A DNA stretch of 64,000 bases, taken from positions 10,083 through 74,082 of IMG/VR virus record IMGVR_UViG_3300017902_000306. The stretch is one strand, 5' to 3'. The notes under the pieces were generated by a model. The model was given only the letters and a program-made list of their open reading frames with translations, was not told the DNA's origin and searched no databases. Made by a program: the position numbers and the translations under genes. This DNA is from a virus (Duplodnaviria; Caudoviricetes). Positions 9,942 to 47,507 of this stretch are shown one piece after another (the stretch's first letter is position 1; each line of letters starts with the position of its first letter).

Positions 9942-10546
9942 GACCCATTTCAATCAACAGTGATTTGACTAGAATGTTGGACGATTACATAAATTGGTTC
10001 AACAAAAAAGATTTTGATTTGCCGATGGATGAAAAGAGGTTCGGCGACAGGGACATGGAGTATTACTGTTCCAAAGAATATCTTGACCATGTAATGTCTG
10101 AATCGAAGAAACACAGAGGCCCTCCAGAGTATGCGAAGGTATGTGACTTTCATTTGACACACAAGACACCACAACAGGCAAGAGAAAAGTCATTAGAATT
10201 TTGTAAGGACTTGGCTGCATATCTTGGCGCCAAGTTTACCGCAGTTCACGTTTACTATCCCGAAGGTGGATATATGTCGTGGCATAACAATTGGGACTGT
10301 CCAGGCTACAATATACTACTATCTCATAGTGATGGTGGTGGATTCTTCAAGTATCTCACTGAAGATGGTTCTATTGAAACAATGAACGATCCTGCCGGAT
10401 GGAACGCAAAGGTTGGATATTACGGTGGCAAAGATGATCCATACTGGCACTGTGCTGGTTCTACTAGTCCTAGACAGACAATCGGATTTGTTATCCCCGA
10501 CAAGGACATGTGGGAAATGATGATAGAGGATATCAGTTATGCTTAG
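9938..10546 (+). CDS. Putative 2OG-Fe(II)/cupin-fold oxygenase
   Basis: YYPEGGYMSWHNN ... YWHCAG ... RQTIGF resembles the double-stranded beta-helix oxygenase pattern. Confidence 0.5.
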   Translation: MRPISINSDLTRMLDDYINWFNKKDFDLPMDEKRFGDRDMEYYCSKEYLDHVMSESKKHRGPPEYAKVCDFHLTHKTPQQAREKSLEFCKDLAAYLGAKFTAVHVYYPEGGYMSWHNNWDCPGYNILLSHSDGGGFFKYLTEDGSIETMNDPAGWNAKVGYYGGKDDPYWHCAGSTSPRQTIGFVIPDKDMWEMMIEDISYA

Positions 10547-11120
10547 TGACAAGGTAGCGATGTCTATGACAAAGTTCTTTCGGTTTTTTGCCGATACGTT
10601 CTTTGCTAAAAGGTATGGACATAGAGCAGTTGTTTTAGAAACCATTGCAGGGGTGCCTGGTATGGTAGCAGGGATGTGGTTACATCTAAAAAGTCTGCGT
10701 AAAGCAAAAACTGGATACGGGCCTACGATTCGTGAACTACTTGCAGAAGCAGAGAATGAACGTATGCACTTGATGTTCTTTATAGAAATTGCAAAACCAA
10801 ACTGGTTTGAGAGACTACTGATTCTCTTGGCGCAGTTTATATTCTGGCATTTTTATTTCATTATGTATCTCATTTCGCCACGGACTGCACATAGAATGAT
10901 TGCATACTTTGAAGAAGAGGCGGTCAGGAGTTATACGGAATATATGACACTGATTCAAGCTGGTGTGATACCAAACGTCAAGGCACCTCAACTAGCAATA
11001 GACTACTACGATATGCCACAGGATGCAAAGTTATGGGACATGGTTTATAATGTTCGCAATGACGAACTCAACCACTCCAAAGTAAATCATAGGATGGCGG
11101 ACAACTTATGTTCTCAATAA
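10539..11120 (+). CDS. aox: Alternative oxidase (ubiquinol oxidase, di-iron)
   Basis: RYGHRAVVLETIAGVPGMVAGM, EAENERMHL, HRMIAYFEEEAVRSYT and VRNDELNH supply all four iron-binding segments of AOX. Confidence 0.95.
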   Translation: MLSDKVAMSMTKFFRFFADTFFAKRYGHRAVVLETIAGVPGMVAGMWLHLKSLRKAKTGYGPTIRELLAEAENERMHLMFFIEIAKPNWFERLLILLAQFIFWHFYFIMYLISPRTAHRMIAYFEEEAVRSYTEYMTLIQAGVIPNVKAPQLAIDYYDMPQDAKLWDMVYNVRNDELNHSKVNHRMADNLCSQ

Positions 11121-31539: not shown

Positions 31540-32805
31540 ATGTATCTTTCTGAAGAAATCCAAAAGAAGTGGAGTCCAGTTCTGGATCATCCCGATTTGC
31601 AGGAAATTTCCGACCCGTATCGTAAGTCGGTAACTGCTGTAATTCTGGAGAACCAAGAAAAGGCTCTACAAGAAGAAAAGCAAGTCTTTTCTGAAGCAGT
31701 GCATGCCAACAACATGTCAGCTGCGATTGACACTTATGACCCCATCCTCATCAGTTTGGTTCGCCGTGCGTTGCCTAACCTGATGGCGTATGATGTCTGC
31801 GGTGTTCAACCGATGACTGGCCCCACTGGTCTTATCTTTGCGATGAAGTCGCATTATACTTCACAAACCGGCACAGAAGCTCTGTATAACGAAGCAGACA
31901 CCGACTTTGCTGGTGCTGGAACCCACGCTGGTTCCAACCCTGTTGATGGAACATACACAACAGGAACAGGTATCACTCGTGACAACGCTGAGTTGTTGGG
32001 TGACACCGTTACTCTTAACCAGATGGCATTCTCAATTGAGAAGACCACGGTTACTGCTAAGTCTCGTGCGTTGAAGGCAGAATACACTGTCGAACTCGCT
32101 CAAGACCTCAAGGCAGTTCACGGTCTGGATGCTGAGTCAGAGTTGTCAAACATTCTGTCTCAAGAAATCCTCGCTGAGATCAACCGTGAAGTCATCCGAA
32201 CCATCTACAAAGTTGCTAAGACGGGTGCTGCTTCAACTGCAACCGCTGGAACTTTTGACCTAGACGTTGATTCAAATGGTCGTTGGTCTGTAGAACGGTT
32301 CAAGGGTCTTCTCTTTAACATCGAAAGAGATGCTAACGTAATCGCTCAAGATACTCGTAGGGGCAAAGGTAACTTCATCATCTGTTCTTCAGATGTTGCA
32401 AGTGCTCTGTCAATGGCTGGTGTTCTTGACTACGCTCCCGCCCTCAACACTTCTCTGAATGTTGATGACACTGGTAACACTTTTGCAGGTGTTCTCAATG
32501 GTCGGTATCGTGTATACGTTGATCCTTATTCTGCAAACACTGGTGCTGCAAGTCAGTTCTACGTTGCTGGATACAAGGGCACATCACCTTACGATGCTGG
32601 TCTGTTCTATTGCCCATACGTTCCTCTGCAAATGGTTCGTGCGATTGACCCGTCTACTTTCCAACCTAAGATTGGATTCAAGACTCGTTACGGTATGATC
32701 GCTAACCCATATGTAACTCAGTCAGATGGAACTACTGATGCTGATACGTTCACTGCTGATCGTAACCAGTATTACCGTTCAGTCAAGGTAACAAACTTGA
32801 TGTAA
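31540..32805 (+). CDS. gp23: Major capsid protein
   Basis: LISLVRRALPNL.AYDVCGVQPMTGPTGLIFA, AKSRALKAEYTVELAQDLKAVHGLDAESEL, FQPKIGFKTRYG. Confidence 0.98.
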   Translation: MYLSEEIQKKWSPVLDHPDLQEISDPYRKSVTAVILENQEKALQEEKQVFSEAVHANNMSAAIDTYDPILISLVRRALPNLMAYDVCGVQPMTGPTGLIFAMKSHYTSQTGTEALYNEADTDFAGAGTHAGSNPVDGTYTTGTGITRDNAELLGDTVTLNQMAFSIEKTTVTAKSRALKAEYTVELAQDLKAVHGLDAESELSNILSQEILAEINREVIRTIYKVAKTGAASTATAGTFDLDVDSNGRWSVERFKGLLFNIERDANVIAQDTRRGKGNFIICSSDVASALSMAGVLDYAPALNTSLNVDDTGNTFAGVLNGRYRVYVDPYSANTGAASQFYVAGYKGTSPYDAGLFYCPYVPLQMVRAIDPSTFQPKIGFKTRYGMIANPYVTQSDGTTDADTFTADRNQYYRSVKVTNLM

Positions 32806-32834: not shown

Positions 32835-32861
32835 AAGGGACTCTACGGAGTCCCTTTTTTT
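32835..32861 (+). terminator. Intrinsic terminator after gp23
   Basis: AAGGGACTC-TACG-GAGTCCCTT followed by a T tract; cUNCGg tetraloop. Confidence 0.88.
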
Positions 32862-32866
32862 ATGTG

Positions 32867-32874
32867 TATAAATA
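32867..32874 (+). promoter_or_regulatory. T4-type late promoter for the riboswitch-peptide unit
   Basis: TATAAATA directly after the gp23 terminator. Confidence 0.75.
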
Positions 32875-32920: not shown

Positions 32921-32982
32921 TTCGTTCATCCACCCTAAATGTAGCGGTGGACGGAAGTAGGCAATTCCGCCGAAGGAACGCA
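32921..32982 (+). ncRNA. Glutamine riboswitch (glnA RNA motif, class I)
   Basis: CGTTCA...GACGGAAGTAGG...CCGAAGGAACGC. P1 CGTTC/GAACG, P2 TCCACC/GGTGGA, AGUA/GAA E-loop, P3 GGC/GCC; SD GGGAGG follows ~10 nt later. Confidence 0.85.
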
Positions 32983-33003
32983 TCTTCTAAAGGGAGGTGT
33001 TAT

Positions 33004-33177
33004 ATGACTACACAACTAAACTACAGAGGCGTTAAGTATAACGAACTTATAACTCAAAAGGCAGAGATGCCTTTAGAGATGTTATATCGTGGCGCTAAAT
33101 ACGATCCTACTCAGAGACAACAGAATGTTCCTGCTAAATCTGGAATATACCGTGGTTCTAAGTGGAGTTTAGTCTAA
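33004..33177 (+). CDS. DUF4278-like 57-aa peptide
   Basis: MTTQLNYRGVKY...LYRGAKY...IYRGSKW; strong SD at 32992-32997; the listed ORF start (32947) lies inside the riboswitch. Confidence 0.8.
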   Translation: MTTQLNYRGVKYNELITQKAEMPLEMLYRGAKYDPTQRQQNVPAKSGIYRGSKWSLV

Positions 33178-33186
33178 GCTAAAAAG

Positions 33187-33212
33187 AAGGGCAACCTTGC
33201 GTTGCCCTTTTC
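33187..33212 (+). terminator. Intrinsic terminator
   Basis: AAGGGCAAC-CTTGC-GTTGCCCTT-TTC; A tract on the 5' side, so possibly bidirectional. Confidence 0.75.
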
Positions 33213-33220
33213 TCATCTCT

Positions 33221-33228
33221 TATAAATA
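33221..33228 (+). promoter_or_regulatory. T4-type late promoter
   Basis: TATAAATA just before gp3. Confidence 0.75.
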
Positions 33229-33233
33229 GAAGT

Positions 33234-33821
33234 ATGGCATATACACCGACAATCGCAATAAACCAAGGAACCCACACTGCTCAATCAAGTAGTGAGTTGG
33301 ATTACTTACGGCCTAATGGTTTTAAGTTCCAAGTGCATAACATACCGCATGTCGCATTTTTCTGTCAGGGTGCAAACATTCCAGATATTAGTATGGGATT
33401 TCCTGTTCAGACTACACCACTTTCTGACATACCATACCCAGGCGATAAGATTGCTTTCGGTGATCTAAACATTCGATTCCTCATTCAAGAAGACATGACA
33501 AACTACAAAGAGTTATATGATTGGATGATCGGATTGGGTTCGCCAGAAAAACACTCACAGTATACAGACTACATCAAGACACAAACATGGAGAACTGCGA
33601 GTGCAAGAAAAGACAAACAGGAAGCTCTCGCACAAGTAAGTGACGCAAGTTTGTTTGTCTTGGATTCAAACGACAATCCAAAGATAGAAATTATTTTCAA
33701 AGATTGTTTTCCAGTTGCTCTTGCCGGACTTGACTTTGATCTTTCTGGTGGAGACCAACCCTATTTTGTAGGAATCGCATCATTTAAATATCGTATATAT
33801 ACTATTAGACCTATGAGTTAA
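33234..33821 (+). CDS. gp3: Tail tube terminator/completion protein (gp3-like)
   Basis: YLRPNGFKF, FFCQGANIP.I, PYPGDKI.FG.L.IRFLIQEDM.NY.ELY.W; usual position after gp23. Confidence 0.8.
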   Translation: MAYTPTIAINQGTHTAQSSSELDYLRPNGFKFQVHNIPHVAFFCQGANIPDISMGFPVQTTPLSDIPYPGDKIAFGDLNIRFLIQEDMTNYKELYDWMIGLGSPEKHSQYTDYIKTQTWRTASARKDKQEALAQVSDASLFVLDSNDNPKIEIIFKDCFPVALAGLDFDLSGGDQPYFVGIASFKYRIYTIRPMS

Positions 33822-45194: not shown

Positions 45195-47507
45195 ATGAAT
45201 ATAGGTTCCAAATCCCAACTCGCCAAGTTGCTCGCCACCGAGGATATCTCTGTGGAACATGCAAATGTCGAGACTGCGTATTTCGATCTGAAAGAACGCA
45301 AGGTGGTTCTTCCCAACTGGAAGGACATGCCCCCCGAATTGTATGATCTACTGCTTGGCCACGAGATCGGTCACGCTCTTGTTACCCCGCTAGAGGGTTG
45401 GCATGATGCGACTTGTTCCGAGGGCCCTGCCTTCAAATCATTTCTTAATGTTGTCGAGGATGCTCGTAACGAGCGACTGACCAAACTACGATACCCTGGC
45501 TTAGTCAAGTCATTCTACAAGGGTTACAGTATACTTCACAAAAGAGATTTCTTTGGTATTGGTGATCGTGATGTCAATACCTTGCCTCTTATTGATCGAA
45601 TCAACCTACACTACAAAGTGGGTTCATTCGCCAATGTTTCTTTCACTGCTGAAGAACAAATCTGGCTCAATGCGATTGATGCCGCTGAGGAATGGGATGA
45701 AGTTGAACAGATTGCTCGTGACTTGTTTGCTCTCGCCAAACAAGAGATGCAAGATCAACCACAAGCACCATCCATGCCAGAACAATCTGATGATGTTGAA
45801 GAATCCGATGATGCTGGTTCTGCTCCTTCACCTAGTCCACTTGATGATGCTGAAGATGGCGAAGAACAAGATGGCGACACTGGTTCCGATGGTGAGTCTG
45901 ATGACGGTGAAGAATCTGATGAAGATGTTGACGGTGAGACTGGCGACATTTCTTCTGATGATGCCGAAGAAGAAAAAGATTCTGACTCCGAGGCCGAATC
46001 AAAAGAGGAGTCTGGTGATATTGATCTAGGTAGTGAAATCAATGATCCAGTTGCTGCCACTGACATGGCATTCCGTGAGAATGAGGAACGTCTAGTTGAG
46101 AATTCTCAAAATGAGTGTGTTGTCACTGCTAGAGTTCCTAAGTTGAATCGTGCTCGAAACGTGATGACTACTGATCAAACATGGTCAGAACCCTTTGTGG
46201 TCTCAAAAGATCGTTGGTCACATGACCATCTTTCTCCTGCCGAACAAAAGAAGTTCGTTAAAAAGTTGAATGAGGAATTTCAAAACAAAAACAAATCTTC
46301 CATCAATCAATTGGTGATGCAGTTTGAGATGAAGCGCAAGGCGTCAGAGTTACGCAAGGCTCAGGTCAACAATACTGGTAAGTTGAATGAAGACAAGTTG
46401 TGGGCTTACAAGTTGACTGATGATTTGTTTCTGTCAAACACTGTTGTGCCTAAGGGTCAGAATCATGGTATGTTCATGGTTCTGGATATGTCTGGTTCAA
46501 TGGGTAACCATATGGAAGGAACTATCGAACAGTTATTGATCCAAGTTTCTTTCTGTCAAAAAGTTGGCATCCCATTTGATGTTTACGGGTTCACTTCCTG
46601 TATGGGAACCCCAGACTCACTTGGGCCAAAACAGTCAATGAACAGTGGTGAACTGGTTGTGGAAAACGGCGTTGGCCTTGTTCAGTTGATTACTTCTGAC
46701 AAAGGTTCTGCTGAGTTTACTAGGTGTTTTGAAAACTTGCTCATGTATGCAAGTTGTTTCGGAACTTTTTGCTCTCGCAATAGTAGGGAGTCTTATCAGG
46801 ACTGCTACGTTGAATACTACAATCTTCCTAATTGGTTACAACTTGGTGGCACTCCGCTTGCTCAGTCAATGGTGGTTGCTATTGATGTTGCTAAGGAGTT
46901 CAAATCACGCAACAAAGTTGAAGTGTTGAACACAATCGTGTTGTCTGATGGTGAGAATACTGACAATTTCAGTGTTGTTGATACCAATGTCGATGGCCAT
47001 GTTACCTTCAACCGATTCCAAACAATTCCTAACAAACTTGTTCTGAAAGATGGTTACACTTCTGTCGTTGTCACTGAACCTGAGAGTAGTTTCTATCGTG
47101 GTTGGGGTTCAATCTCCAGAGGCATTTCACTGAAGGGTGTCATGGAATTGTTCAAGTCTGTCACTGAGTCTCGAATGATTCACTTGTTCCTTTGCGGCAA
47201 AAGCAAACGTGAAGTCAAAAACAATTGGCACGACATGACTGGCATCCGTGATCACTGGACACCAAACCCAGAGTTTGAAAAGACTTACAAAGAATTCTGG
47301 AACAAAAAAGATTTCTTGCCTGTCGATAGTGTATGGGGATTTGATGCTGCGTTTCTGATCAAGGGTGATTCGCTCAAAGTTGAGGAAGCGGAATTGGAAA
47401 TCAAGTCTGAGAAAAAGGCCGATGTGCTGCGTGGATTCCGCCAGTTTCAGTCTAAAAAGACTAATTCCCGCCACTTCATTAACCGATTCATTGATCAGGT
47501 TGCGTAA
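45195..47507 (+). CDS. cobT: CobT-like VWA/metallopeptidase-domain protein
   Basis: TAYFDLKER...LP.W, HEIGH, NVVEDAR, acidic linker, DMSGSM MIDAS, GGTPL, LSDGE. Confidence 0.75.
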   Translation: MNIGSKSQLAKLLATEDISVEHANVETAYFDLKERKVVLPNWKDMPPELYDLLLGHEIGHALVTPLEGWHDATCSEGPAFKSFLNVVEDARNERLTKLRYPGLVKSFYKGYSILHKRDFFGIGDRDVNTLPLIDRINLHYKVGSFANVSFTAEEQIWLNAIDAAEEWDEVEQIARDLFALAKQEMQDQPQAPSMPEQSDDVEESDDAGSAPSPSPLDDAEDGEEQDGDTGSDGESDDGEESDEDVDGETGDISSDDAEEEKDSDSEAESKEESGDIDLGSEINDPVAATDMAFRENEERLVENSQNECVVTARVPKLNRARNVMTTDQTWSEPFVVSKDRWSHDHLSPAEQKKFVKKLNEEFQNKNKSSINQLVMQFEMKRKASELRKAQVNNTGKLNEDKLWAYKLTDDLFLSNTVVPKGQNHGMFMVLDMSGSMGNHMEGTIEQLLIQVSFCQKVGIPFDVYGFTSCMGTPDSLGPKQSMNSGELVVENGVGLVQLITSDKGSAEFTRCFENLLMYASCFGTFCSRNSRESYQDCYVEYYNLPNWLQLGGTPLAQSMVVAIDVAKEFKSRNKVEVLNTIVLSDGENTDNFSVVDTNVDGHVTFNRFQTIPNKLVLKDGYTSVVVTEPESSFYRGWGSISRGISLKGVMELFKSVTESRMIHLFLCGKSKREVKNNWHDMTGIRDHWTPNPEFEKTYKEFWNKKDFLPVDSVWGFDAAFLIKGDSLKVEEAELEIKSEKKADVLRGFRQFQSKKTNSRHFINRFIDQVA

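Follow-up and report, generated by a model that had tools for sequence, protein, structure and literature searches.

What would a marine phage do with a 57-residue peptide that carries three evenly spaced YRG units? The open reading frame in question lies on the plus strand near the middle of the window, the whole stretch of 64,000 nucleotides analysed here. An earlier note on this DNA had read its product as a possible mimic of the glutamine synthetase (GS) inactivating factors. The source is a 74-kb IMG/VR viral contig that is about 45% complete, and the phage is a marine T4-like myovirus. We consider it likely that the locus is a phage-borne, glutamine-gated copy of a module, known from cyanobacteria, that pairs a type-1 glutamine riboswitch with a small DUF4278 protein. 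From 5' to 3', the locus consists of:

31540..32805, + strand: gp23 major capsid gene (phrog_138 major head protein, E 6.5e-159)
32835..32866, + strand: intrinsic terminator-like hairpin and T-run (9-bp stem with 5 G-C pairs, then TTTTTAT)
32867..32874, + strand: T4-type late promoter motif TATAAATA, 46 nt 5' of the aptamer
32921..32984, + strand: glutamine riboswitch aptamer, type 1 (glnA RNA, RF01739; 60 bits)
32980..33000, + strand: expression platform, a 9-bp predicted helix (MFE fold)
33004..33177, + strand: 57-aa stand-alone DUF4278 ORF, stop codon counted in, with three modelled YRG beta-hairpin units
33187..33209, + strand: G+C-rich terminator-like hairpin 3' of the ORF, with a borderline U-tract on the + strand
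33221..33228, + strand: second TATAAATA, 5 nt before ATG 33234
33234..33821, + strand: next structural gene, a tail protein (phrog_45, E 2.9e-34)

The best tblastn matches of gp23 were Melnitz (69%), HTVC008M (67%) and cyanophages (about 62%). The hairpin (32835–32856) and the T-run behind it form a terminator-like close to the gp23 unit. In S-SKS1 (a Synechococcus phage) and Melnitz (an OM43 phage), merely 70–96 nt separate gp23 from the next structural gene, which argues that the 428-nt cassette present here is an insertion. An unrelated contig (L009) has a riboswitch–YRG cassette at the equivalent site after gp23. On the plus strand, the hairpin 3' of the ORF has the stem GGGCAAC/GTTGCCC followed by TTTTCTC, and the terminator scan flagged it on the minus strand; because its U-tract is weak, the riboswitch unit may read through into the tail gene. 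The second TATAAATA is too near ATG 33234 for a normal leader, and its role is uncertain. Since it ends only 5 nt before this ATG, the tail gene would be either leaderless or reliant on read-through from the riboswitch unit.

Translation of 33004–33177 (+) gives 57 aa containing LNYRGVKY, MLYRGAKY and GIYRGSKW. The YRG tripeptides occupy residues 7–9, 28–30 and 49–51, a spacing of exactly 21 aa, confirming the three units roughly 21 aa apart that the earlier note had described. A peptide of this composition would be expected to contain 0.024 YRG, and the probability of three or more is about 2e-6. Among the 678 stop-to-stop frames of at least 40 aa in the window (58,811 residues with 9 YRG), this was the sole place with three YRG within 55 residues. 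A Shine–Dalgarno (SD) sequence, GGGAGG, is located at 32992–32997, 5' of ATG 33004. When the ORF was compared with a relative 71% identical to it (L005), 33 codons were identical, 9 differed synonymously only and 15 non-synonymously, with the YRG units retained and the changes falling in the linkers. The peptide is basic, with a net charge of about +5.

A longer frame of 76 aa, starting from GTG 32947, passes through the riboswitch. Starts inside the riboswitch add 15–25 aptamer-translated residues that are not conserved between relatives, and because this holds for the N-terminal extension from GTG 32947, ATG 33004 is the likely translation start. Gene callers often begin P0002 (76 aa), P0003 (79 aa), P0046 and P0202 inside the riboswitch, at GTG or ATG. 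ESM Atlas contains the exact peptide sequence, and its nearest feature clusters there are DUF4278, with scores of 0.85–0.86 (lead level) and few phylum-assigned members, all of them cyanobacterial. Searches of 50,697 phage records with the peptide (tblastn) and the cassette (blastn) returned no match; the query was probably too short for the E-value limits, since PHROG profiles do match the peptide (phrog_545, E 2e-7; phrog_5049, E 5e-7). The YRG peptides of psbA-linked cyanophages match phrog_5049. These profile matches imply that YRG peptides are already present, unnamed, in sequenced phage genomes.

The peptide is a member of DUF4278 (PF14105), as the earlier note had suspected from its YRG signature: the Pfam profile matched it in two stretches (E 2.1e-8, 34.8 bits against a cut-off of 25.3), and it has the roughly 57 residues and three [hydrophobic]-YRG-x-x-[aromatic] units of this domain. 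The profile aligns to the phage peptide incompletely because the YRG units of the peptide are spaced 21 aa apart rather than 23–25 aa. In a Moorena protein of 57 aa the 57-position model runs the full length (1–57), and in the long forms it takes in residues 1–57. Among the 120 cyanobacterial riboswitch-linked matches listed, the ORFs fall into two length classes, 53–70 aa and 106–184 aa; the short forms account for 51 of them (about 40%) and occur alongside long forms, and 108 of the 120 have three YRG. The family comprised 486 clusters at E≤1e-3, and in the top 150 cluster representatives three YRG were found in 103, two in 37 and 4–8 in a few, so that the number of units across the family runs from 2 to 8. 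P0025 (223 aa) and P0108 (237 aa) have 6–8 tandem YRG units before an IF7-like C-terminus.

Three YRG units are therefore the canonical DUF4278 domain, with no special multivalent design, which leaves the purpose-built multivalent binder once read into the repeats unsupported. AlphaFold2 (18-sequence alignment) modelled three beta-hairpins whose turns contain R-G (pLDDT 74), their relative arrangement being undefined (pTM 0.26). PDB sequence-profile and Foldseek searches found no solved structure alike.

RF01739 matched upstream of the ORF at 60 bits (gathering score 35, E 9.9e-11) over model positions 1–53 of 53, untruncated, and the 3' end of the aptamer lies 20 nt from ATG 33004. The conserved aptamer core is GGAAGUAG, and the aptamer sequence is 100% identical in L005. 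In the MFE fold, GCAUCUUCU (32980–32988, from the last P1 base onward) pairs with GGGAGGUGU (32992–33000); the isolated tail helix has a predicted energy of -8.2 kcal/mol and covers the Shine–Dalgarno sequence. Across viral homologues, we counted how many bases of the 12 nt that follow P1 could pair with positions -16 to -3, with the 12 nt shuffled as a control. At least five SD-hiding pairs occurred in 89% of 89 unique viral platforms versus 52% of shuffles. The viral platforms have 59 distinct helix sequences (for example, CACCU/AGGGUG, CAUCU/AGAUG and CGCCU/AGGUG), and in the predicted structures the SD-sequestering helix is conserved with compensatory changes.

In Synechocystis gifB, the C of a ligand-dependent long-range G-C pair and its 3' neighbours are proposed to form a helix with the ribosome-binding site that melts when glutamine binds (PMC6212724). 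Because the SD-hiding helix has the same arrangement as that proposed for gifB, we infer from structure prediction and homology that the phage unit acts as a glutamine-ON translational switch. In the absence of glutamine, the stretch immediately 3' of P1 would pair with the Shine–Dalgarno sequence and block initiation. Glutamine binding would draw the leading nucleotide of that stretch into the long-range G-C pair of the aptamer, the helix would melt and the peptide would be translated. The full RF01739 aptamer and the predicted SD-sequestering helix upstream thus support the earlier proposal that the peptide is made only when glutamine is high.

The motif TATAAATA has 13 exact copies in the window, all on the plus strand, compared with 1.83 expected, and most of them are 25–55 nt before the starts of structural genes. 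The motif suggests that the unit is transcribed late, with transcription starting from the copy at 32867. An exact TATAAATA is found upstream in just 18% of viral copies, so late timing would be specific to this locus. Placing a phage copy under a late promoter follows the usual logic of auxiliary genes.

The aptamer and the peptide were invariably linked in viral relatives: RF01739 was directly upstream in 7 of 7 (36–96% identity), and it was likewise upstream in L271 (137 kb), the nearest relative found that lies on a long contig. The short contigs bearing relatives P0008 and P0010 added no gene context. The aptamer-core pattern had matches in at least 120 IMG/VR contigs. Among the viral aptamer matches listed, nearly all have an ATG and a Shine–Dalgarno sequence 16–38 nt downstream, the ORFs behind them (L017–L136) are small and basic (28–65 aa), and YRG/DUF4278 makes up about 30% of the peptides.

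At least five other conserved peptide families, none with a Pfam family, stand behind viral aptamers. Such families include one with a W/Y-C motif (28–38 aa), one with 'NGxGTSGY' (64–65 aa), one ending in ITDNPFYP (45–54 aa, often behind tandem aptamers) and one ending in DDPRLQKI (50 aa); one non-YRG aptamer-linked family matches phrog_32989. Examples of viral aptamer-linked ORFs are:

L017:2598-2789, - strand: viral aptamer-linked ORF
L024:3025-3171, - strand: viral aptamer-linked ORF
L025:4044-4193, + strand: viral aptamer-linked ORF
L026:4453-4584, - strand: viral aptamer-linked ORF
L043:6627-6719, + strand: viral aptamer-linked ORF

Sequenced phage genomes hold further small ORFs of this kind. 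In Melnitz-2 (MZ577096.1, about 46469–46564; L011:1572-1667, + strand), an unannotated 32-aa ORF begins 25 nt after the aptamer and has a helix that would sequester its SD; the CDS annotated at this place in the record is on the minus strand, and the Melnitz authors took the riboswitch to control the tmRNA upstream of it (PMC9004378). In Mosig (MT647606.1, L262, minus strand, just downstream of 92197), a 51-aa '...DDPRMQGI' ORF follows 16 nt after the aptamer. P-SSM2 (AY939844.2, 245155–245206; L263) and S-SKS1 (HQ633071.1, 197434–197481; L012) have variant RF01739-like matches of 35 and 25 bits, respectively, each with an ORF of 49–53 aa 9 nt later that belongs to another conserved family, ending in C-x-W-D-A.

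In cellular genomes, we searched 185,579 species genomes for the aptamer 3' end together with two YRG codon triplets, obtaining at least 120 stretches. A YRG ORF stood behind the aptamer 3' end in every one of the 120 stretches listed, and the 80 record titles listed were almost all cyanobacterial. Among the rest, the non-cyanobacterial L198 and L204 were chance matches, and L156 resembles a binned phage fragment.

One cellular contig (L273, an ENA metagenome contig of 430,509 bp, 37.6% G+C) has an RF01739 match of 42.9 bits with a long insert. There, at L273:5733-6207, a 68-aa 'SGIYRGxxW' peptide (P0195) follows about 150 nt after RF01739 and about 0.8 kb downstream of a GS-family gene, with a PNPOx gene also upstream. 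The best named relatives of the GS-family protein are from Gammaproteobacteria MAGs (about 63% identity), and this 430-kb contig appears gammaproteobacterium-like. RF01739 has been reported in SAR86 MAGs (PMC12379486). On a second contig (L274:5338-6180, GCA_039815485.1, labelled Pseudomonadota bacterium), a 59-aa DUF4278 gene is divergent beside a P-II gene; L274 had no RF01739 match at the gathering score. The Leptolyngbya BC1307 genome has several GS-family paralogues, with no clearly canonical GlnA among the matches.

To which host the phage belongs bears on what the peptide could bind. No psbA, CsgG or GS genes were found in the 74-kb contig. Among viral YRG-peptide contigs, psbA was present in 8 of 28, all 8 of the MSKVVYRG... 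or MSQATYRGC... subfamilies; it was absent from the 'SGIYRGxKW' contigs (G000, 74 kb; G001, 91 kb; G002, 57 kb; G003, 24 kb; G021, 56 kb) and present in 1 of the 49 viral contigs with a non-YRG peptide behind the aptamer. The gp23 protein is slightly nearer to those of Melnitz, HTVC008M and Mosig (66–69%) than to those of cyanophages (about 62%), and shares the length of the former. Its tree did not separate placement with cyanophages from placement with the pelagimyophage/Melnitz group, and terminase identities were equally uninformative.

The window also encodes an alternative oxidase at 10539–11120 (+; PF01786, 244 bits), whose sole match among 50,697 phage records was the uncultured phage C48C1 (61%); the complete C48C1 genome contains neither psbA nor RF01739. 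The oxidase had no match to cyanophage PTOX at E≤1e-3, and it points to a ubiquinone-using, non-cyanobacterial host. Given the absences in incomplete contigs and the relatives of one gene, we lean towards a host outside the cyanobacteria and treat this as a lead. The proteobacterial host of the earlier note is plausible, on the contig's gene content and relatives.

What, then, might the peptide do? The product would be a basic, stand-alone DUF4278 domain of three modelled YRG-centred beta-hairpins, equivalent to the N-terminal moiety of IF17 without the IF7-like C-terminus. In what is the least certain step, it may, late in infection, pass on the signal of high glutamine by acting at the protein level on the host's nitrogen assimilation. 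Inactivating factors are unstable host proteins (PMC6316151), and the phage may supply its own factor because theirs stop being made after infection; the peptide would then replace a short-lived host factor whose synthesis has ceased. GS or a GS-family enzyme, bound electrostatically by the peptide as a weak or accessory inhibitor, is the most likely single target and, even so, a doubtful one. Another nitrogen-status protein comes close to an even bet as the target, and something unrelated takes up the remainder. The nitrogen-related cellular contexts are gifB itself, the GS-family gene on L273 and the P-II gene on L274.

A tentative but credible alternative is that the peptide has a nitrogen-status target other than GS, such as P-II or a partner, a transporter or the translation machinery. 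On this view, DUF4278 would serve generally as an effector domain for the 'glutamine-high' state, and IF17 would only have borrowed it as a stabilising N-terminal part. This fits the share of short stand-alone forms among the cyanobacterial riboswitch-linked copies listed (51 of 120), the DUF4278 gene divergent beside a P-II gene in L274, and the at least five other unrelated families of small basic peptides behind viral glutamine riboswitches. However, neighbourhood is weak evidence, and the fold and sequence searches matched no known binder.

The peptide could instead be an IF17/IF7-type GS inactivating factor, its three YRG units clamping the dodecameric host GS at high glutamine. The link between DUF4278 and IF17-type proteins drawn in the earlier note was borne out (PMC6212724, PMC6316151): DUF4278 is the N-terminal moiety of IF17 (GifB), which the peptide has, and it is described as dispensable for inactivation while stabilising the protein and improving GS inhibition (PMC6316151). 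IF7 resembles the C-terminal moiety of IF17, and it is this IF7-homologous part that holds the residues critical for GS inactivation, namely R110, K102 and conserved arginines (PMC6316151). Two long forms matched NF052599 (GS_inact_IF7A; cut-off 70 bits), L162 over residues 77–140 with 90.7 bits and L152 at its C-terminus with 64.9 bits. The peptide had no NCBIfam match at E≤1, thus no NF052599 module, and the same was true of the 57-aa cyanobacterial form; in the alignment, the peptide extends no further than the start of the linker in the long forms. Judged by its sequence, it is a DUF4278 member that falls outside the IF17/IF7-type inactivators, because the IF7-like C-terminal module (NF052599) is missing, and the 'GS inactivating-factor mimic' is to that extent unsupported.

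We regard such an inactivator as unlikely, even though DUF4278 under glutamine-ON control is the logic of gifB (PMC6212724) and the DUF4278 part of IF17 reportedly improves GS inactivation and stability (PMC6316151). The peptide is basic, as inactivating factors are, a peptide of the same subfamily lies near a GS-family gene in L273, and a YRG number that varies from 2 to 8 is expected of a modular binding array. Against this, the inactivation residues R110 and K102 lie in the IF7-homologous part, whose profile NF052599 matches long forms and neither the peptide nor the 57-aa cyanobacterial form; three YRG are the family norm and not an adaptation; and GS–IF pairs are species-specific (PMC6316151), whereas the host is probably not a cyanobacterium. 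For picocyanobacteria, which have short forms only, IF-mediated GS inactivation was ruled out by earlier studies, though co-evolved binding may occur (PMC6316151).

That the ORF is a nonfunctional relic, the riboswitch governing something else such as an RNA function or transcription that continues into the tail gene, would suit the weak U-tract after the ORF, the next TATAAATA 5 nt from ATG 33234 and the tmRNA control assigned to the Melnitz riboswitch (PMC9004378), but is very improbable given the strong Shine–Dalgarno sequence at the right distance, the YRG units kept amid variable linkers, the 9 synonymous-only codons relative to L005, the 486 family clusters at E≤1e-3, an SD-sequestering helix that aims at the ORF's own Shine–Dalgarno sequence, and a small SD-bearing ORF about 16–25 nt after the aptamer in Melnitz and Mosig as well.

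On the preferred reading, that of a glutamine-gated riboswitch–DUF4278 module, the locus is a clean case of a phage carrying a metabolite sensor together with a small effector, and a direct handle on how marine phages read the nitrogen status of their hosts. The broader and more interesting lead is that many viral aptamers, mostly on psbA-less contigs, each gate one of a number of small peptide families. Taken together, it is conceivable, if rather improbable as a whole, that the host is a heterotrophic marine proteobacterium (SAR86-like or similar), that the 'SGIYRGxKW' peptides are glutamine-gated nitrogen effectors outside cyanobacteria, and that marine phages use one aptamer to gate at least six unrelated small basic peptides late. 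If this is true, small-protein inhibition of GS or another nitrogen hub would not be unique to cyanobacteria, and a phage regulon would have escaped notice, in Melnitz for instance through an interpretation as tmRNA control. Three things are worth knowing: the role of stand-alone DUF4278 proteins, a question standing since 2018 for cyanobacteria too; whether 'marine metagenome' glutamine riboswitches largely belong to phages of heterotrophs and some Gammaproteobacteria; and whether the many other small ORFs downstream of glutamine aptamers in viruses act on a common target.

Glutamine riboswitches are already on record in T4-like cyanophages (PMC9602691, PMC9964418) and in Melnitz and Mosig (PMC9004378), and the link between the aptamer and DUF4278 is on record in cyanobacteria (PMC6212724). 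Phage copies of DUF4278 were not discussed in the literature we found mentioning the family. The peptide matches phrog_545 and phrog_5049, families that carry neither a recorded function nor a riboswitch link.

Among known systems, the locus resembles Synechocystis sp. PCC 6803 gifB (IF17; PMC6212724) in having RF01739 directly 5' of a DUF4278 ORF and in the P1-attached nucleotides that would pair with the ribosome-binding site until freed on glutamine, an arrangement proposed for both and predicted here. Unlike IF17, which has about 150 aa and a C-terminal IF7-like module, the phage peptide stops 6 residues after its third YRG, and its gene lies under a late motif, whereas the gifB promoter is NtcA-repressed. 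As a stand-alone DUF4278 domain without the IF7-like part, the peptide is like the short 'IF17-like' proteins of picocyanobacteria (PMM1846 / Yfr6 ORF), which are switched on by nitrogen excess via a glutamine aptamer and whose function is unproven (PMC6212724, PMC6316151). The phage aptamer, however, is of type 1 and the picocyanobacterial one of type 2 (Downstream-peptide, RF01704), and the phage peptide belongs to the 'SGIYRGxKW' subfamily, found on psbA-less viral contigs and one contig that appears gammaproteobacterium-like.

The 53–70 aa DUF4278 proteins of filamentous cyanobacteria (for example, Moorena bouillonii L151) share with it the length of 57 aa, the three YRG and an RF01739 directly upstream; they differ in being cellular genes, in sequence (about 36% identity) and in spacing (23–25 aa, against 21 aa in the phage). 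Melnitz (a Methylophilales phage) and Mosig (a Pelagibacter phage) likewise have RF01739 with an SD-sequestering platform in marine T4-like Kyanoviridae (PMC9004378), but their aptamers precede unrelated ORFs of 32 aa and 51 aa, respectively, and not DUF4278. Set beside these systems, the locus adds a member to a known kind of module and is not a new mechanism.
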